The translations under genes were made by a program, and so were the position numbers. Below, in pieces: positions 2,858 to 32,625 of a DNA stretch of 41,096 bases. The stretch is taken from the IMG/VR virus record IMGVR_UViG_2541047851_000007; one strand, 5' to 3'. The notes below the pieces were generated by a model. That model was not told where the DNA came from. It ran no database searches and saw only the letters and a program-made list of their open reading frames with translations. This DNA is from a virus. Taxonomy: Duplodnaviria > Heunggongvirae > Uroviricota > Caudoviricetes. How positions within the stretch are numbered: position 1 is the first letter of the stretch; the number at the start of each line of letters is the position of its first letter.

Positions 2858-4053
2858 GACTCCACCGTTATAACGATATTTTCCGGGGTACAGGACGCAG
2901 ATTCGTTGTATCTGATATCAATGTTTGATGACGACAAAGCCCCCGGGGATTTCCCAATCGTCAGTTCCTGAATATCGTAATAGCGTGCATTCCCGCCACT
3001 CACCACGCCAAGATTCGCCGGTGAGTAAATGCGACTTAAAAGGACCGAATCACCAATCATCAGACTATTGATATAGTCGGAAATAGCCTGCTGGATCTGC
3101 TGCCCTATCTGTGAGGTATAACCCGTAAAAACTTTTAATTTAATCCGGGCATAAACAGGCACATCACTGGAACGCGAGAATTTGATTACATGGGGATTGC
3201 CGTATTTATCCGGAACCGTAACGGATGTTGTACCGTGAGTGGCTGTCCCCTGGCCTTTATTTCCTCTGATAGCCTGAGCAATATCCGTCACATCACCGCC
3301 ATCCACAATTACAGCAACAGAGTGTGGCGGTAACCCGTTACCGTCCTCTGAACCAGTATCGTTTTCATAGAGTTTGTGGCGGGTTACACCGGTAACATTA
3401 GAAACAGCACCATCCAGTGCTTCAAATGGGGTTATTGATGGCAACGCAACACTTTGCGACTGACGGATACGTAACTCCGCATCAGTTTCTGCCGGAGTGC
3501 CTACAGTAGCTGCAGCAGGATTGGTTACCGAAACCCAGCCACGGGTTGGCGTATTAATTTCAGTGATAGTTCCAGCCAGCGCCGCCACTGCACCACTGAC
3601 GGAACATGTTGCGGTCGCCATCACTGTACCATCCACGCCGACCACCACTGAAGCAGGCAAACGCCATATCACATTATTACCATCTTTCACGCTGCCATTA
3701 ATGATGGTTGTTCCGGCAGTTCCTGTAAGAAGCAAATCAACCGTAGAGTTCGTCGCGCCTTTACGTGAAATACCATTTATTTTCACGTTACTGGTCAGTG
3801 CAGCCCCATAGCCGGTTGCCGGTGAAAAACAGTTGTAGACAGTTATCGCAGTATTATTGGCATCATGAATCGCCAGCGCCATCAGAGCCACCATCTGGCC
3901 GTCTTTGCTGTCCGGTTCGAGGTAGGCATCACTGCCATAAATCTGCTGAAAATAGCTAATCAGGGTGCTGAGTATCGTCTGATAATCAGGCGCACTGATC
4001 CCCTCCGCGGTTACCTTTGCAGATAAACCGAGAGAATCAAGGTTCAGAGCCAT
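2854..4053 (-). CDS. Baseplate J-like protein
   Basis: 399 aa; size and position in baseplate cluster. Confidence 0.6.
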   Translation of the reverse strand: MALNLDSLGLSAKVTAEGISAPDYQTILSTLISYFQQIYGSDAYLEPDSKDGQMVALMALAIHDANNTAITVYNCFSPATGYGAALTSNVKINGISRKGATNSTVDLLLTGTAGTTIINGSVKDGNNVIWRLPASVVVGVDGTVMATATCSVSGAVAALAGTITEINTPTRGWVSVTNPAAATVGTPAETDAELRIRQSQSVALPSITPFEALDGAVSNVTGVTRHKLYENDTGSEDGNGLPPHSVAVIVDGGDVTDIAQAIRGNKGQGTATHGTTSVTVPDKYGNPHVIKFSRSSDVPVYARIKLKVFTGYTSQIGQQIQQAISDYINSLMIGDSVLLSRIYSPANLGVVSGGNARYYDIQELTIGKSPGALSSSNIDIRYNESASCTPENIVITVES

Positions 4054-23986: not shown

Positions 23987-24409
23987 TTATGCCGCCGGGC
24001 AGCTCCTTCGCAAAGTCCTGATAGCCTTAGGCTTTGACTGAACTGCTTGATCCATTTCCAGAACCACGTCCAGCATAGCCAGGCAGCCGTCGATAAATCC
24101 CTCTGCAGCCTGGAGCCTCTTCAGAACTTGAGTGTGTGATACGCCGAGCTTCACACCCATAGCCCTCACAGGCATCGCCTGGATGTAATGCCACTCAAGG
24201 AGCGTACACAGGTACGGATCTTTTTTCTTCAGGCAGTTCATAGCAGAGCTGATGATCAGACCGTCATTGTCACTGCACTTCAGCCGCCCGGCTTGCGTTG
24301 CAGGTAGCAGATTCTTAAATCCAGCGGAAACAGGTGGATAGTAGACACTGCAACCTTCGCTCGCAGCCCAGCCCCCCCATCGCTCTAAAACCAGTCGAAT
24401 ATCACGCAT
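23987..24409 (-). CDS. Late antiterminator Q (phage 82 / DLP12 QuuD family)
   Basis: 140 aa; N-terminus MRDIRLVLERWGGWAA and C-terminus KRLQAAEGFIDGCLAMLDVVLEMD resemble QuuD as recalled. Confidence 0.8.
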   Translation of the reverse strand: MRDIRLVLERWGGWAASEGCSVYYPPVSAGFKNLLPATQAGRLKCSDNDGLIISSAMNCLKKKDPYLCTLLEWHYIQAMPVRAMGVKLGVSHTQVLKRLQAAEGFIDGCLAMLDVVLEMDQAVQSKPKAIRTLRRSCPAA

Positions 24410-24539: not shown

Positions 24540-24718
24540 TGTTACCACCTGTTACCACTGTTACCACCATGTTCTTAACCTTTCCCTGAACGACTTATAT
24601 ATATATATGGGGTTGTTAGTAATAAGGTGGTAACAGTGGTAACAGTGGTAACAAACCTTAAATTTCAATACGTTAAAAAGTTACCACCTTACCTTTGCAG
24701 GTGGTAACAGGTGGTTAC
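24540..24718. repeat. Iteron-type replication origin (inverted iteron sets flanking AT-rich tract)
   Basis: Three direct TGTTACCAC(C) repeats (24540-24570), tatatatatatat (24596-24608), three inverted GGTGGTAACA-type repeats (24627-24654), more copies at 24680-24688 and 24700-24718. Confidence 0.65.
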
Positions 24719-26883
24719 GCCCGCCGCCAAACCTTCATTAACTTGCCTTCAACACGTCGTGTTTCACGCTTATATCCGCAATTTTGCAAAACATTGCTAA
24801 TTCGCATTTCTTCGCGTTTTCCGATGCGGTCAGGTTTTAACCCAATCGCATCTCGCAGGACGTCACTAGCACGTAAAAATTCGCAATTTCGCGGAAGTTC
24901 ATTAGTCATCAGGTCGGGCGTGTCGAGCCATTTCTCTACCGTTTCAAGCCAGGCATCCTTGATGGTGTACTGCTCATGGACACTCGCTGCCAGTTGTTCA
25001 GCCTCACGGAACTGGATACCCCCCAGACGCTGAAACACCTCACGAGCCTCAGCCCAAAGTAAAAGGAGATCTCTTTTTATCGCTTTCACGTCGACTTTCG
25101 ACACTTCCACGGGGAGCCAGCGACGGTTACCAGTCTTGTCCGCAAGGAATTCGTCCTCATTGGTGGTACCAACGAACACCAGGCGACGAGGAAACTGGGT
25201 GGCGAACTCCCGGTATTTCGGGATCCAGTTTTCGTGAGTACGCGTCACAAACGCTTTGATTGACTCCAGCTCTTTGGTATTAAGTCCGCGCAGTTCACCA
25301 ATCTCTGCCACCAGCCGACCACGCATTTTTCGAGCGAGATCATCGTCTTTTTCGGCAAAAGAGATTTCAGTAAAAAACGCAGGATCAGGGCTCAGTGCCT
25401 CCACTCCGGAAGACTTACCGCAGCCCTGCGGACCAACGAGGATCGGCACCATATCCGCTTTGATGCCTGGCTCCAGTACTCGCCCCGCCAACGCGGTCCA
25501 CATGTACATAGACACCGCACGGGTATAAGGCGTGTCGGCGGTACCGAAGTGCGTATGGTAGAAACATTCGATGCGCGGCACGCCATCCCACTCCAGTCCG
25601 TTCAGCCAGGTGATCGCTGAATCGAATGGTTGTTCATCGGCTGCAAGTAACACCACATCGCGAATAAGTTCACGGCCAACAGGTTTAAATCCCCGCTTTT
25701 CCATCGTGATGCGCAGGCGCGCATAATCCGCATCGGTGAATGCCCGCCATTGTCCGGATCCTGCCGGGGCAAACATGATTTCGTCGCGGAACTGGTCAAA
25801 GCGAATATCGATGTCCACAAAATCAGGGCGTACTACTGCTTTGGCTGCGTTGCTGATTGTTGCCTCGATACGCCCCCATTTATCACGCTCGAAAGCAGGC
25901 AGCGGTAAAGGTTCCGCCACTTCGGTGCTGGTCAGATCTTCGAAATCGTCGTTGCGGATCCCGATGGCATTCAGGAAATCTCCGTCATCACGATGCGCGC
26001 AACTGGCATGCAGGCATTTAAAATGCCCCTGCTCAAAGCCTGCGGTTCCCGCAGGAAAATAAACTGTGCTTGTTGGATCGCCTCCGCTACTGTGGCCGTC
26101 TTCAAACGGACAGCGGATATATCGTTCACCGTTTGCGCCATCCAGCAGCGTCCAGCCATTGGCATCAAGATATTCAGCTGTATCATCCGTCGCGCCGGGC
26201 GTGAATGCTGAACGGTCGCGCATCTTCGTGTTGCCCGCTTCGGTGGTTACCGACACAGGGAGTTGTTCAGCCAGGCGCTGCCACAGCGTTTCAAGCTGCT
26301 CACCAGTAATAGCCGGAGGTTCATCCGGCAAACCGCCGTCCCATTCAATACGCGCGCCGCTGCTGTGCGTACCGCAGGCAACGAACTGCTGCCCGTTCGC
26401 CAGCAACTCGATAATGCCCATATCCCCCGCCAGGCGATGGATACGCTTACGGAAATCACCATCAACGGCCAGCAGATACAGACACTTATTACTGTTTGCT
26501 CGCCAGCGTCGCGGCGGCGACTCACCCAGAAGTTGCACAAGTGTTTTGCGAATATCTGCCTGAATGTCTTCATCTTCGCTATCGCAGTCCAGCGCCAGCC
26601 AGCCATGGCCTGTACGCACGCAGATCCCATAGTCCGGTTCGTTCGACCAGCGGGCAAAATCATGCTCAGTTACGACGTGCCCAGTCCAGTCGTTAATTCC
26701 GGTAGCCAGACGGTTGCGGTTATACAGGCTCGGCGTTTTGCCAAGCACTTTGAGTTTGCTGTTCGGTGAAATAATCGCGCCCGGATTGCACACGACCGGT
26801 AGCAGCTGGTCCGTACGACCCAGCACCAGGTCGAAGTGGAACCATTCGTCAGGCGTCGCCCCCCACGGTTTGCTATCAGACAT
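24715..26883 (-). CDS. Replication primase-helicase (P4 alpha-like)
   Basis: 722 aa; Cys/His zinc-binding motif, Walker A GPQGCGKSS, downstream FVGTTNEDEF...TGNRRWLPV; adjacent to iterons. Confidence 0.8.
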   Translation of the reverse strand: MSDSKPWGATPDEWFHFDLVLGRTDQLLPVVCNPGAIISPNSKLKVLGKTPSLYNRNRLATGINDWTGHVVTEHDFARWSNEPDYGICVRTGHGWLALDCDSEDEDIQADIRKTLVQLLGESPPRRWRANSNKCLYLLAVDGDFRKRIHRLAGDMGIIELLANGQQFVACGTHSSGARIEWDGGLPDEPPAITGEQLETLWQRLAEQLPVSVTTEAGNTKMRDRSAFTPGATDDTAEYLDANGWTLLDGANGERYIRCPFEDGHSSGGDPTSTVYFPAGTAGFEQGHFKCLHASCAHRDDGDFLNAIGIRNDDFEDLTSTEVAEPLPLPAFERDKWGRIEATISNAAKAVVRPDFVDIDIRFDQFRDEIMFAPAGSGQWRAFTDADYARLRITMEKRGFKPVGRELIRDVVLLAADEQPFDSAITWLNGLEWDGVPRIECFYHTHFGTADTPYTRAVSMYMWTALAGRVLEPGIKADMVPILVGPQGCGKSSGVEALSPDPAFFTEISFAEKDDDLARKMRGRLVAEIGELRGLNTKELESIKAFVTRTHENWIPKYREFATQFPRRLVFVGTTNEDEFLADKTGNRRWLPVEVSKVDVKAIKRDLLLLWAEAREVFQRLGGIQFREAEQLAASVHEQYTIKDAWLETVEKWLDTPDLMTNELPRNCEFLRASDVLRDAIGLKPDRIGKREEMRISNVLQNCGYKRETRRVEGKLMKVWRRA

Positions 26884-26886
26884 GGG

Positions 26887-27126
26887 TTACACCTTTTGCT
26901 GCTCTGAATTTTCGCCGTTTAATAGCCAGTCAGGATCACATTTAAGAACTTTTGCCAATTCAAGAATGAAGCCAGTACGAGTGGCACGACCGGATTCAAG
27001 GTACTGAACAGACTGCTGGCGCATACCAACCCTTTCAGCCAATGAAGTTTGGGTTATGCCTAAGGCTTTGCGGCGCTCCTTTATACGTGAAGCAAGAGTG
27101 GAACCGGACATAAATAACTTCCTCAC
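26887..27126 (-). CDS. Cro-like HTH regulator
   Basis: 79 aa; XRE-type HTH (LGITQTSLAERVGMRQQSVQYLESG); divergent from CI gene; true start may be internal Met 6. Confidence 0.65.
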   Translation of the reverse strand: MRKLFMSGSTLASRIKERRKALGITQTSLAERVGMRQQSVQYLESGRATRTGFILELAKVLKCDPDWLLNGENSEQQKV

Positions 27127-27131
27127 ATGTT

Positions 27132-27193
27132 TACAGGTTTACTTGTAATTAACCCACAGGCACTCTTGTTTGTCAAATACAGATAGCTCTGTA
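27132..27193. promoter_or_regulatory. Tripartite operator region between cro and cI
   Basis: Three 16-bp sites spaced 23 bp: TACAGGTTTACTTGTA (27132-27147), CACAGGCACTCTTGTT (27155-27170), TACAGATAGCTCTGTA (27178-27193); overlaps TTGACA -35 for cro on minus strand. Confidence 0.6.
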
Positions 27194-27220: not shown

Positions 27221-27850
27221 ATGAATCTTGCTATCCGGGCCAAAAAGCGCAGAACAGAACTCAATTTAACTCAGGTCGAAGTTGCTAAACGAGCGGGCAT
27301 AAGCCAGCAGTCAATAGAAGCTATAGAGAACGGCAAAACGCTAAAACCACGTAACCTTCTTGCTTTAGCATCGGCTCTGGAGTGTGATCCTAAGTGGTTA
27401 CTACTCGGGGGTGATGTTGTCACGAATTTCAACTACGGAGCCCGAAGGGTGCCTGTTCTAAGCTATGTACAAGCCGGAGCTTTCACAAGCACTGAACAAC
27501 TTCATGAAGGCGGTGATTTCGAATACATCCTGACAACAACGGAATTATCAGAGCGTTCGTTTGCTCTCCGTATACGCGGAGATTCGATGGAGCCAGAATT
27601 TAAAGAGGGTGACATCGTTATAATTGACACTGACGTATACCCTACCCCTGGCGAATTTGTTGCGGCATGCAATGGTAGCCATGAAGCAACGTTCAAAAAG
27701 TACCGCCCGGTAGGGATTGGCGCTAAAGGTGAGGAAGATTTTGAACTTGTTCCCTTAAACAGCGATTACCCTATTTGCCGCTCCTGGGAAAAACCTATCA
27801 AGATTATTGGAACAATGGTGGAGCATCGCATATTCCGCCGAAAAAGATAA
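27221..27850 (+). CDS. CI-like repressor with LexA-like S24 peptidase domain
   Basis: N-terminal HTH (LTQVEVAKRAGISQQSIEAIENG), Ala-Gly site in YVQAGAF, catalytic GDSMEP; start moved to ATG 27221 after AAGGAG RBS. Confidence 0.85.
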   Translation: MNLAIRAKKRRTELNLTQVEVAKRAGISQQSIEAIENGKTLKPRNLLALASALECDPKWLLLGGDVVTNFNYGARRVPVLSYVQAGAFTSTEQLHEGGDFEYILTTTELSERSFALRIRGDSMEPEFKEGDIVIIDTDVYPTPGEFVAACNGSHEATFKKYRPVGIGAKGEEDFELVPLNSDYPICRSWEKPIKIIGTMVEHRIFRRKR

Positions 27851-27871
27851 TCGCATCTTCGCTTCAAACAA

Positions 27872-27936: not shown

Positions 27937-27980
27937 TACAAGAATACCTGTTGACTTAATTACAGGTTTACTTGTACTTT
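27937..27980 (+). promoter_or_regulatory. Second operator pair with rightward promoter-like element
   Basis: TACAAGAATACCTGTT (27937-27952) and TACAGGTTTACTTGTA (27961-27976, identical to 27132-27147); TTGACT (27951-27956) - 18 bp - TACTTT. Confidence 0.5.
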
Positions 27981-27989
27981 TAATCCAAC

Positions 27990-28180
27990 GAAGTAATCGC
28001 TCTTTAACAAACAGAACCGCGTGACAGGTAAGCCGCAGTGCTCCTGGCAAAACGAAATAGCACCCGATGGGATCGAGGTAAGCGCCGAGTCCGTATGCGT
28101 ACGGTAAGCGTAGAGGACAACACCGCGATGAACTGATAAGTCACGCAAGTTGAAACGCCCCGATGATGGGGCGCTTAGTT
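27990..28180 (+). ncRNA. Candidate structured non-coding RNA / leader element
   Basis: No credible ORF; closing stem GCGTGAC (28019-28025) with GTCACGC (28140-28146); internal hairpin CCGTA-TGCG-TACGG (28090-28103); terminal hairpin CGCCCC-GATGAT-GGGGCG (28156-28173) then U-rich tail. Confidence 0.25.
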
Positions 28181-28224
28181 CCTTTAACTCTGGGTGACCG
28201 GAAGGGTACCCATGCTTAAAGAAA

Positions 28225-28794
28225 TTACTGGTTGTAAGGATCGTAATCCGTGATTGCCTTCCCCGGATTTTCATCTTCAGAAGGCAGTCGGGCCTCTAAA
28301 GCATTTCGGTTGAACAGATAGGAAGCCCTACAGTACGAACAAACCATATTAACGGCTCGCCCAAGGCCTGGCTTAGTAACCAGTCCTTCCGCTTGCAATA
28401 TAGATTTTCTCTTTTGCTCGTAGCAATTGGGACAAATATAAACCGGAGATTGGTCAGCATCTGCAGAAAGCTTGCTGCGATAGACCAGAGTCCCCCGCAT
28501 AGGCTGGTAAAGTTCATAGCTCGCCGCTTCAGCGGCCCAGTTCTCTTGCTTTACTTTCTCATTTTCCAGTTCAACAATTTTCTCCTTAGCCGCAATCAGC
28601 AGCTCCTGAAGCGACATTTGCTGCATCTGAACATCCATTAGCTTATCGAGTAAGATGTGCGTCTTCTCTTTAACTGCATAGTCTACAGTCAGATTCTGAA
28701 TCTCTCTTGCTGCTCCAACCGCGCTTTTAATTGCTCCTCCCACGCCGGATAACGATTCAGTTATCCGGGAAAGAATTCCTTTTTCTTCAGACAT
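28225..28794 (-). CDS. Coiled-coil / zinc-ribbon protein, unknown function (immunity-region moron)
   Basis: 189 aa; helical N-terminus; CPNC...x25...CSYC at C-terminus; convergent with cI, divergent from early operon; AT-rich. Confidence 0.55.
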   Translation of the reverse strand: MSEEKGILSRITESLSGVGGAIKSAVGAAREIQNLTVDYAVKEKTHILLDKLMDVQMQQMSLQELLIAAKEKIVELENEKVKQENWAAEAASYELYQPMRGTLVYRSKLSADADQSPVYICPNCYEQKRKSILQAEGLVTKPGLGRAVNMVCSYCRASYLFNRNALEARLPSEDENPGKAITDYDPYNQ

Positions 28795-28810: not shown

Positions 28811-28886
28811 ACTGTAGGGGTGAAGAGATATTAGACGATTTCTCACTGTAGGGGTACAAGGAGAACCACCTCGCCTGATGTGGTTA
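28811..28886. repeat. Direct repeats and inverted repeat upstream of zinc-ribbon gene
   Basis: ACTGTAGGGGT at 28811-28821 and 28845-28855, each preceded by TCTC; inverted repeat AACCAC-N10-GTGGTT at 28865-28886. Confidence 0.5.
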
Positions 28887-28933
28887 AAAGCAGGCACTCG
28901 ATGATATCCATGTAATTGCTGTGTGTAGTCTTT

Positions 28934-28960
28934 GCCCGCCGCAAGTGACGGGCTTTTTTA
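28934..28960 (+). terminator. Possible leader terminator/attenuator before early operon
   Basis: GCCCG-(10 nt)-CGGGC followed by TTTTTT; short stem, long loop. Confidence 0.35.
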
Positions 28961-28998
28961 TGTCTGAAAGCGCACTCGCAACAGCGCGCTCCCCGATA

Positions 28999-29167
28999 TG
29001 AAAAAAGGAATACAACCGATGAAACCTGAACACATCCATCGACTGACGGGGCGCGATGTTCTCCGTTATCGCCGTAAAAACTTCGATTTGATGACCGGTC
29101 TGGCCGTTGCCACTGCGCTCGGTCTGATCATCACTTTCATTCTCCTTGTAGCGAGGACCACAGTATG
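28999..29167 (+). CDS. Small single-pass membrane protein (first ORF of early operon)
   Basis: 56 aa read by eye ([56 protein letters not shown]); AAAGGAA RBS; stop overlaps next ATG. Confidence 0.35.
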
Positions 29168-30067
29168 AGTTTAGAAACCAGTCTAGAACTTAATAATCAA
29201 CTTCTGGCACAACATAATGCGCTGCTTGAACGTCTTATCCGCACAATGGCATCAGGCATTGTTATGCATCCTGACACGATTTCACGAGTGCAGGAATGTC
29301 GGGATACAGCAACTGAAACTGAAAATATGTCAGCGGCAATGACACTGGATGATCTGGAGTTCAGCGACGTTATCGCACTGGCTGGTTTCTACCCGGTAGC
29401 CACCCCTATCACAGAAGACATGCTGCAACGTGCTGTTGCCTACCGTGATGCTGAAGGCGATAAACGAGTTGTTCAGATTGATGCTCTCGACAGCGCATTG
29501 CAGGGCGTCAAACGAGCCAGGGCGCTGCTTAAACCTGCTCTCCTGGACCTGTCCCGTAACATCCTTAAGTTCTGGGACGACCTGCCAACCATCGGCGAGC
29601 GACGTGCTTTTGCCGAGCAGCTACTTGATGCACCTGCAGATGGGCGTGATGAAGTTAAGCCGAAAAAGGCCAGTAACAAAGATGGAGAACGCACGGGGCC
29701 GTTTTACGTCAAAAATGTATCCGGCACAGCAGCCAGTGAACTCCATACCTTACGCAAGTTGAACGAGATGCTTAAAAAAGGCCATATCGAGATCAACCGT
29801 GTTGAGTACCTTCAGCTGCAGGAAGAATTTGCACGCAGAGACGCAGCAAATTCCAGCCAGAATAATGACGCCAAAGATGACCATACAATTGATTTCGCGG
29901 CACTACGCAAACAAGCTGAAGGGTTGATCCTCCAGTTAGCAAAAGGGGGTTACCGGGCAGAAGCTATTGCAATTCTGGAAAAACAGGGAGCCAGGAAACT
30001 TGGTGAAGTAACGGATGAAAATCTCGCTGAAGTAATCACCCTGGCTGAAAAAGCACTGGAGGGTTAA
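29165..30067 (+). CDS. Hypothetical early protein
   Basis: 300 aa; helical, acidic; coupled to following nuclease gene. Confidence 0.5.
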
Positions 30068-31956: not shown

Positions 31957-32625
31957 GTGCTGGGGGATCTCATGAGGGAAAGAATAATGTCACAGCCCGT
32001 ATTAACTAATTACCTTAAAACTCAAATCATCAATAACGCACTTGAGAAAGCGGGTATCCCCAAACGTAAATCAGCACTACGAGCTGCTCGTGTTGAATGG
32101 GCCGAACGTGTTCGGCTTGCAGCTATCGGGGGCGTAGAGAAAGAAGCTGAAATATTAAAAAATATAAAAAAAATAGAAACACTGGTATCAAAATTCCCCG
32201 AAGCATTAAAAACCGCCAATAACATTATCAGGGAAGAGTGTTACATGTGTCTGAATCTGGCAGGTTCTCGGGTTACCGTCTATTTCAACGGTAACTACCG
32301 AGGATATGAATCAGGGTCACCAGACCATATTCACAAAATCGCGCCGGGGGAATTTACCCTTCTGGCAAATGACCCTCTAGTTACAGAGTTTTACGGGTTT
32401 GATACACTTTATGAGCAGATACAGAGCGATGAGTCAGACATTCGACAGAATGTCAGCGCTGCACTCAGTAAAGTGCGCACAGTTAAGCGCCTGCTGGAAG
32501 AGTGGCCTGAAGCTAAAGAACTTCTGCCAGCCGATGCACCATCTGCTCCGCTTCCGCCAGCTATACGACGCGAAACTCTCAACGAAATGATCGGCCTCCC
32601 TTCTGACGAAGGGGTAGATGCTTAA
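31957..32625 (+). CDS. Hypothetical early protein (likely start at 31987)
   Basis: 222 aa ORF; internal Met with RBS GAGGGAAAG. Confidence 0.45.
   Translation: MLGDLMRERIMSQPVLTNYLKTQIINNALEKAGIPKRKSALRAARVEWAERVRLAAIGGVEKEAEILKNIKKIETLVSKFPEALKTANNIIREECYMCLNLAGSRVTVYFNGNYRGYESGSPDHIHKIAPGEFTLLANDPLVTEFYGFDTLYEQIQSDESDIRQNVSAALSKVRTVKRLLEEWPEAKELLPADAPSAPLPPAIRRETLNEMIGLPSDEGVDA

Follow-up and report, generated by a model that had tools for sequence, protein, structure and literature searches.

In the 41,096-nt phage sequence IMGVR_UViG_2541047851_000007 (IMG/VR; Caudoviricetes), here called the window and meaning the whole stretch that was analysed, the plus-strand segment from 27998 to ~28173 belongs to a real, conserved and structured RNA family that is currently unannotated. 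Its members begin with a boxA of the type found in ribosomal RNA (rrn) operons, fold into a four-way junction and lie behind early promoters of temperate phages. We estimate a probability of about 0.5 that the rightward early (replication) operon has this region as its leader and that the leader RNA acts in cis to render RNA polymerase resistant to termination with host factors only. Judged from its sequence, the element is probably a read-through device not previously described.

A portable boxA module behind early promoters

The conserved module consists of a boxA, a 128-nt core and a 3' hairpin. BLAST comparison with phages and E. coli genomes showed that conservation starts at 27999 and ends at ~28173-28185 irrespective of the flanking sequence; the module is therefore portable and not part of the immunity region. 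It was present in 105 of 5426 complete E. coli genomes and, among isolated phages, in the four of the vB_EcoM-606R2 group. Scanning IMG/VR with a pattern returned ~95 genuine copies, and in a scan with one genome per species the module occurred only in Citrobacter, Pseudocitrobacter and Trabulsiella. Patterns with a free interior yielded no new classes, only one chance match in a coding region. The family covariance model found one copy per locus and no other match in the window.

An Rfam scan, suggested as a check in an earlier note made on this DNA from the letters alone, matched no family to the element: Rfam 15 gave no gathering-level match in the window or in six related loci, and at E<=10 nothing over 27998-28180 except a spurious edge match to a snoRNA. 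An identity with phage RNAs of the C4/IsrK type was dropped, as no Rfam match was obtained. A literature search with strings of the element sequence and keywords found no description of the module; an earlier description within comparative work on put-like RNAs is possible, although the put RNAs known so far, ten sequences, are all ~70 nt.

The boxA, a feature absent from the earlier note, reads CGCTCTTTAACAA and lies ~12 bases past the inferred transcription start. The rrnH leader of E. coli carries TGCTCTTTAACAA, to which the window boxA is identical at 12 of 12 core bases, and some relatives match the rrnH boxA at 13 of 13. The core common to the element and rrn is GCTCTTTAACAA, and 27998-28010 is the sole full rrn-type boxA match in the window. 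In a search that did not require a boxA, TCTTTAACAA was located within 40 nt upstream in 101 of 103 elements and the remaining two had a one-base variant, which makes boxA and structure inseparable. The spacing from boxA to the closing stem P1 is a constant 8 nt in the family alignment. Searches of the window and of related loci found neither a second boxA nor a second copy of the element in the other early operon. The boxA and the upstream control sites are as follows.

27937-27952, no strand: operator TACAAGAATACCTGTT, overlapping the -35 (mismatch search, sequence)
27951-27956, plus strand: -35 hexamer TTGACT (sequence; TTGACx or nearly so in the equivalent position of every related locus)
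27961-27976, no strand: exact copy of the 27132-27147 operator, lying over the spacer and the -10 (0 mismatches)
27975-27980, plus strand: -10 hexamer TACTTT, weak (sequence; TATTTT in relatives)
27998-28010, plus strand: boxA, 5' edge of the conserved module (rrnH match; mosaic boundary at 27999 in relatives)

The two operators past cI and the rightward TTGACT-18-TACTTT promoter that they bracket, both proposed in the earlier note, were confirmed in the sequence. Exact copies of the 16-bp palindrome TACAGGTTTACTTGTA lie at 27132-27147 and at 27961-27976, and the copy at 27937-27952 is degenerate, with three mismatches; dinucleotide shuffles of the window gave a chance expectation of 0.16 sites on average. 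The general form of the palindrome, TACARG-N4-CYTGTA, also marks degenerate copies at 27155 and 27178 in the cro/cI intergenic region. The hexamers are separated by an 18-bp spacer. The -10 is weak, matching TATAAT at 3 of 6 positions, and a promoter consensus scan makes no call; relatives with the same operator have TTGACG-18-TATTTT at the equivalent place. Transcription would start near 27987.

No credible open reading frame (ORF) crosses the element. The ~190 nt downstream of the promoter had been called free of credible ORFs in the earlier note and are non-coding, in agreement with two further observations. Indels of 1, 2, 26 and 50 nt, which break the frame, occur inside the element among family members. 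Moreover, the stop-free frames over the element, the sole 'ORFs' common to the lambdoid relatives and the window, show 65-81% amino-acid identity against 87.5% identity of the DNA. On these observations the element does not show the conserved frame, with changes mostly at silent sites, that a protein-coding gene would have. 'Hypothetical protein' coding sequences (CDS) are annotated over the element on the minus strand in ON470579.1 (31989-32132, URC08718.1) and in NZ_CP081762.1 (2885757-2885984, WP_134393345.1). Such short CDS across the element differ between records and are almost certainly spurious.

Wherever the flank of a related locus is long enough, a sigma-70-type promoter with operator-like repeats on its sides, inverted or direct, precedes the element by 10-65 nt. 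At least 12 unrelated operator or immunity types are found upstream of it, on two unrelated backbones: phages with DUF2800, DUF2815 and DNA polymerase genes, like that of the window, and lambdoid prophages. In the latter, the element sits in the PL leader at the nutL (nutL-N) position, upstream of the kil and gam genes. In one relative (L034; related loci are designated by L numbers) the promoter/operator region shares ~85% identity with HK022 PL as far as the transcription start; past the start, HK022 has putL and L034 has leader, boxA and element.

Terminators were detected with a custom criterion, a hairpin of 5 bp or more that includes at least four G-C pairs and precedes a T run. By this criterion 80 of 94 loci have a strong intrinsic terminator, in the sense orientation and within 1 kb past the element, as compared with 2 of 76 in the control interval from +2 to +3 kb. 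The distance is variable (66 to >1000 nt) and the terminators are of different kinds. In compact loci the terminator ends at ~+92 and the first early gene starts at ~+104 to +108, and in many loci the gap is ~10-20 nt, which leaves no room for another promoter.

In the window the terminator was detected at +760 past the element, and it forms the end of a second RNA module.

28850-28963, plus strand: RprA-like RNA module with a strong intrinsic terminator (stem 28936-28955 and T tract; Rfam RprA, 47.5 bits)

This terminator is the first barrier for an early transcript. The score of 47.5 bits is below the gathering score of 70: the 3' half of the module (AAUUGCUGUGUGUAGUCUUUGCCC) and the terminator are essentially identical to the RprA consensus, and the 5' half is unrelated. 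With the core TTGCTGTGTGTAGTC within 1.5 kb downstream of the element, often directly after it, the RprA-like module was found in 50 of 94 related loci, and in these it supplies the terminator. The module could be an RprA mimic carried by phages; the literature search found no paper on an RprA-like phage module.

A direct repeat, ACTGTAGGGGT, is present at 28811-28821 and 28845-28855, 34 bp apart, between the convergent gene (see below) and the RprA-like module. Of 5426 complete E. coli genomes, 3116 contain a match to the 58-nt stretch 28840-28897, which is thus a very widespread prophage segment; it dominated a BLAST search of the RprA-like stretch against E. coli genomes, which was uninformative.

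A four-way junction RNA

The core RNA (28019-28146) forms a four-way junction closed by P1, and is followed by a separate hairpin at 28156-28173. The fold is a manual comparative model, assessed on 61 distinct sequences aligned with MAFFT and then realigned with the model. It comprises these helices.

28019-28025 / 28140-28146, plus strand: P1, closing stem GCGTGAC/GTCACGC (comparative model, covariation)
28032-28040 / 28121-28129, plus strand: P2, with a 1x1 mismatch at 28037/28124; three of eight pairs compensatory (U-A to C-G or A-U)
28042-28045 / 28114-28117, plus strand: short helix UCCU/AGGA, 100% kept, nearly invariant
28046-28048 / 28060-28061 and 28063, plus strand: P3, GGC with an 11-nt A-rich loop, 100% kept, nearly invariant
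28064-28068 / 28072-28077, plus strand: P4 hairpin, invariant GGA loop, bulged A at 28076; five of five pairs double-changed (realignment)
28082-28086 / 28107-28111, plus strand: P5, enclosing P6; compensatory G-C to A-U and C-G to G-C
28091-28095 / 28100-28104, plus strand: P6 with a UGCG loop; compensatory A-U to G-C
28156-28161 / 28168-28173, plus strand: 3' hairpin CGCCCC-GAUGAU-GGGGCG, 3' edge of the module; 98.9% paired, one C-G to U-A

Pairing was retained in 93.8% of cells in the MAFFT alignment, with changes on both sides in 10 pairs; the model-based realignment, which leans towards the model, gave 94.5% and 16 of 43 pairs. When the partners were slid by 1-3 columns in the MAFFT alignment as a control, 25-44% of cells were paired and 0-4 pairs showed double changes; over both alignments the slid controls gave 25-46% paired. 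The compensatory changes came from at least five lineages. In the lambdoid clade, P1 changed from C-G to A-U, P2 from U-A to C-G and P5 from G-C to A-U; in L043, a P1 pair became U-A and two P2 pairs A-U; and single helices changed in L068 (P4, C-G to U-A), L027 (P6, A-U to G-C) and L082 (3' hairpin, C-G to U-A). In four variant sequences P4 and P5/P6 were rebuilt from other sequence with the architecture kept. G-U pairs are frequent, for example at 28082/28111 in 56 sequences, and would give A-C on the opposite strand. As they fit the plus strand only, the folded molecule is the plus-strand transcript.

Conserved structure in related prophages was thus found by the folding and covariance analysis that the earlier note had also suggested. 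Its 7-bp closing stem is real and covaries at 28020/28145 (C-G to A-U or U-A), and its internal hairpin corresponds to the hairpins at 28064-28077 and 28082-28111. The terminal hairpin that it described with a U-rich tail stood in part: the hairpin at 28156-28173 is conserved, and its tail is not U-rich in most relatives, in which GGGGCG is followed by UGCAGUGAAUUA or CUGAUUCAACUU with no conserved U tract. The terminator scan made no plus-strand call here, and the hairpin does not qualify as an intrinsic terminator.

Within the junction, UCCU and GGC (28042-28048) close the four-way core, and the P5/P6 hairpin (28082-28111) has a UAA/GAG internal loop. Three GGTAAGC repeats occupy equivalent helix junctions, each supplying a GG helix end, YAA and a GC helix start, with CAA in variants. 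Two of them face GAN on the other strand, and may resemble the UAA/GAN internal-loop motif. The single-sequence minimum free energy fold of 28015-28150 contained the same helices as the comparative model. An RNAalifold fold on the MAFFT alignment was partly different (35-38 paired with 48-51), covaried poorly, with only three compensatory pairs, and was replaced by the manual model, for which the pair counts were better. Two additional pairings, an AAC/GUU extension of P1 and a UUUAAC/GUUGAAA pairing that would sequester boxA, were rejected because changes in the 3' partner were uncompensated in the alignment.

Proposed read-through and alternative explanations

The earlier note had offered two roles, a repressor-controlled small RNA or a put-like element letting polymerase read through terminators. 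The context favours a read-through leader, given the position behind early promoters, the boxA at the 5' edge, the terminators before the early genes and the occupation of putL's place in one relative; membership in the put family did not stand.

put acts on RNA polymerase, at the beta' zinc-binding domain, without protein factors. EAR (eps-associated RNA), a structured cis-acting operon RNA of Bacillus, promotes processive read-through of terminators; unlike the element, it belongs to another phylum, lacks a boxA and is not carried by phages. Like HK022 put, for which RNA-only processive antitermination is established, the element lies directly behind a repressor-controlled early promoter with terminators downstream and no dedicated phage protein evident, and in L034 it occupies the place of putL behind an HK022-like PL (PMC9378689). 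However, put is ~70 nt, as are all ten known put sequences (PMC9378689), with two stem-loops and no boxA, and it is present in both early operons as putL and putR. The element, at ~180 nt, combines a boxA with a four-way junction and a 3' hairpin and occurs in one copy per phage. Searched with the covariance model of the element, the HK022 PL/putL-cI region (L119) gave nothing at E<=10. The element thus shares with put a location downstream of a promoter and upstream of terminators, but neither its size and architecture nor a site in each early operon; on these sequence features it is not a member of the put family.

With lambda nut, the element has in common a boxA at the 5' end of an early-operon leader and, in the lambdoid relatives, the nutL position. 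In contrast to nut, no 15-nt boxB hairpin with a GNRA-like pentaloop stands next to boxA, where P1 of the 128-nt domain begins after 8 nt; no N gene and no cognate N-family protein was detected in the window or in ~99% of the relatives; and the boxA is the high-affinity rrn form, as compared with CGCUCUUA in lambda (affinities: PMC2800207). With the boxA of the rrn leaders, that of the element shares an identical core. In rRNA and in CRISPR arrays, a boxA is established to shield long untranslated transcripts from Rho (PMC7665894). There, as here, a long untranslated RNA follows, and the element would share with these systems the use of host factors only, if it works in this way. The element has no rrn-like boxB hairpin or GU-rich boxC, and no similarity to rrnH beyond boxA. 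Unlike the rrn and CRISPR leaders, it joins boxA at fixed spacing to a conserved 130-nt structured RNA, with strong intrinsic terminators downstream.

A mechanism can be proposed on this basis. In the lysogen, a CI-type repressor bound to the two operators would shut the rightward promoter, and upon induction transcription would start near 27987. The rrn-type boxA (27998-28010) would be the first conserved RNA made and would bind host NusB-NusE (S10). The next ~130 nt would then fold into the four-way junction, with P1 bringing boxA and the 3' hairpin together. RNA and host Nus factors, with no phage protein, would stay on the elongating polymerase, the folded RNA stabilising or extending the modification. 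Polymerase could in this way cross ~1 kb of untranslated and otherwise Rho-targeted RNA and the RprA-like terminator (28936-28963) to reach the replication genes. What is observed are the sequence features and their conservation, the plus-strand fold, the constant association with boxA and location behind early promoters, and the terminators downstream; transcription from the promoter, binding of Nus factors, their persistence on polymerase and read-through itself are what we infer.

The read-through leader could further represent a third kind of early antitermination beside N/nut and put: an RNA-only, portable device of a high-affinity rrn boxA and a new 130-nt four-way junction that, with host Nus factors alone, would make host RNA polymerase insensitive to both Rho and strong intrinsic terminators. 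We hold this fuller version tentatively, at somewhat less than an even chance. The accompanying proposal that lambdoid and non-lambdoid temperate phages of Enterobacteriaceae have passed the module between them is put forward with the same reserve.

Several observations weigh against a structured read-through device. No terminator was detected within 1 kb in 14 of the 94 loci, and the element occurs in one copy per phage; lambda and HK022, by comparison, carry sites in both early operons. The lambdoid relative L074 has a lambda-type N gene downstream of the element, and boxA alone might give anti-Rho activity, leaving another job to the structured part. Folding energy was no better than that of shuffled sequences (z = +0.55 for 27986-28185; z = -0.20 for the core), so that the case for structure is comparative and not thermodynamic. 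The family is shallow, with 92% mean column identity and an effective sequence number of 1.06, and UCCU/AGGA, P3 and most of P1 never vary, giving no covariation support for those helices. Finally, a third of the structure has been lost in L050, L062 and L112, natural deletion variants in which either 50 nt (the P2 5' strand to P4) or 26 nt (the P5 5' strand and P6) are gone; the deletions are attributed to recombination between GGTAAGCG repeats, and either the element has a modular build or the prophages concerned are defective.

Among the alternatives, the one that fares best, though still unlikely, is that boxA alone antiterminates, by Nus protection of the long leader against Rho, and that the junction is a passenger stable RNA, for example one binding or titrating a host protein. 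boxA/Nus complexes alone handle strong intrinsic terminators poorly, and the barriers downstream of the element are mostly of this kind; in addition, boxA and structure are never found apart and keep their fixed 8-nt spacing. Systems with boxA only are nevertheless known (PMC7665894), and the leader in the window is untranslated for ~1 kb. A passenger role would also suit the GGA of the P4 loop and the invariant AGAGGAC, which resemble protein-binding motifs, and the G+C-rich 3' hairpin without U tract, which could be a stabilising end.

Less probable again is a trans-acting small RNA, made of the element alone or fused to the RprA-like 3' module and acting on host or phage mRNAs or proteins. 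In many relatives the RprA-like seed and terminator lie within ~90 nt, which predicts a transcript of ~290 nt with an Hfq-type 3' end, and a single copy per phage would be in keeping with such a role. However, the element occurs both with and without the RprA-like module, and in the window a 570-bp convergent gene separates the two. Since early genes stand directly past the terminator with no room for a promoter, some read-through must occur, and a boxA would be unexpected on a short small RNA.

We consider it comparably doubtful, if not slightly more so, that the element is a nut-type site for an unrecognised N-like protein, with the 3' hairpin or the junction as the equivalent of boxB. The geometry of boxA and hairpin, joined by P1, would fit such a site. 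So would L074 (IMGVR_UViG_2924896205_000007), in which a close lambda N homologue with the arginine-rich motif (ARM) MDARARRRERRAEKQAEWKAAN is encoded ~700 nt past the element in the PL operon, yet no lambda-type boxB hairpin was found in the 6.8-kb locus. This is the only lambda-N homologue in ~100 loci, however. No N-type family was detected near the element of the window by Pfam and PHROG matches, which highly divergent N analogues might escape, and no protein within ~5 kb of the element is common to the two backbones, save the spurious frames over the element and a distant repressor similarity. The loop of the 3' hairpin is the 6-nt GAUGAU and not a GNRA-like pentaloop.

A riboswitch-like leader, in which the junction would bind a metabolite or host factor and gate the entry of polymerase into the early operon, is very unlikely. 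Its size, multi-helix junction and invariant junction nucleotides are typical of aptamers and a terminator usually follows, but no conserved alternative pairing between aptamer and terminator was seen, the distance and kind of terminator vary, the adjacent hairpin has no U tract and no Rfam riboswitch matched. Least credible of all is that the element does not function as RNA but is a decayed coding remnant or a DNA-level site (protein-binding repeats or a single-strand replication initiation signal), as the three GGTAAGCG (GGTAAGC) repeats and the short hypothetical CDS of some records might suggest: the helices are kept by compensatory changes with G-U pairs on one strand only, indels break the frame, protein identity is below DNA identity, the annotated CDS disagree between records, the repeats are equivalent helix junctions and the element is common to phages with unrelated replication modules.

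Many N-less enterobacterial temperate phages are assumed to use put-like RNA, as stated for phage LLS (PMC12315714). For read-through in such phages, the element provides a concrete, conserved and structurally defined candidate, and by carrying the host's own rRNA boxA it links phage antitermination to that of rRNA. If the read-through leader is real, it would be a compact protein-free part that forces read-through in E. coli and would offer structural studies of modified elongation complexes a new substrate; it would also be an annotation target that is unannotated or mis-annotated as a hypothetical CDS in ~2% of complete E. coli genomes. If it is instead a stable phage RNA with another role, it would still be a new structured RNA family absent from Rfam.

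Gene layout and lambdoid leaders

The window contains a temperate phage whose gene order around the element is given by the ORF list and by profile matches.

27221-27850, plus strand: CI-type repressor gene, whose operators control the rightward promoter (Pfam/PHROG matches, ORF list)
28225-28794, minus strand: convergent accessory gene, 189 aa, Zn-ribbon-like, phrog_1244, two CxxC pairs (ORF list, profile match)
29019-30067, plus strand: first two early genes of the rightward operon, 49 aa and 300 aa (ORF list, profile matches)

The repressor is of the CI/LexA type, with HTH_3 and Peptidase_S24 domains by Pfam and PHROG, and the terminator hairpin of its gene begins at 27870. In the leftward operon a cro-like gene (26887-27126) comes first, followed by genes for a VapE-type primase (24715-26883) and a Q antiterminator (23987-24409) and then by lysis and structural genes. 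The first gene of the rightward operon starts at 28998 or 29019; its distance of ~1 kb, beyond a convergent gene, had been given correctly in the earlier note. In the window and in some relatives, the convergent gene separates the element from the RprA-like module. Many others lack it, which marks it as inserted between element and early genes. Read on the minus strand, the 3' hairpin of the element is followed by UUUCAACUU and could double as the terminator of this gene. A scan found no tRNA or tmRNA in the window.

In the lambdoid prophages the element lies upstream of a lambda-like N-leader stem (CUUUGGGGUG...CACCACCAAAG). This long stem was located 300-600 nt past the element in L117, L074, L011, L052 and L116, and it varies strongly in its interior. 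For L117, ARAGORN reports a tRNA-Ser(tga)-like sequence within the stem (3161-3231, minus strand); that of L074 has a tRNA-like T arm, and that of L011 contains a stretch resembling, by eye, a 16S rRNA fragment. The ends of the stem resemble an acceptor stem with ACCA. A mini-ORF of three codons (ATG AAG CAC/AAC TAA) with a strong GAGGAG Shine-Dalgarno sequence is conserved 13-36 nt past the 3' hairpin in L002, L011, L014, L034, L116 and L117, and in lambdoid relatives it is followed by ~300 nt of conserved, hairpin-rich non-coding sequence.

Downstream of the first two early genes, the rightward operon of the window continues with DUF2800, DUF2815, Nmad5 and DNA polymerase genes. The Nmad5-domain protein (nucleotide-modification-associated, PF18757, E = 3.6e-56) is encoded at 31957-32625 on the plus strand, between the DUF2815 and DNA polymerase genes, and its presence hints at DNA base modification in this phage group.

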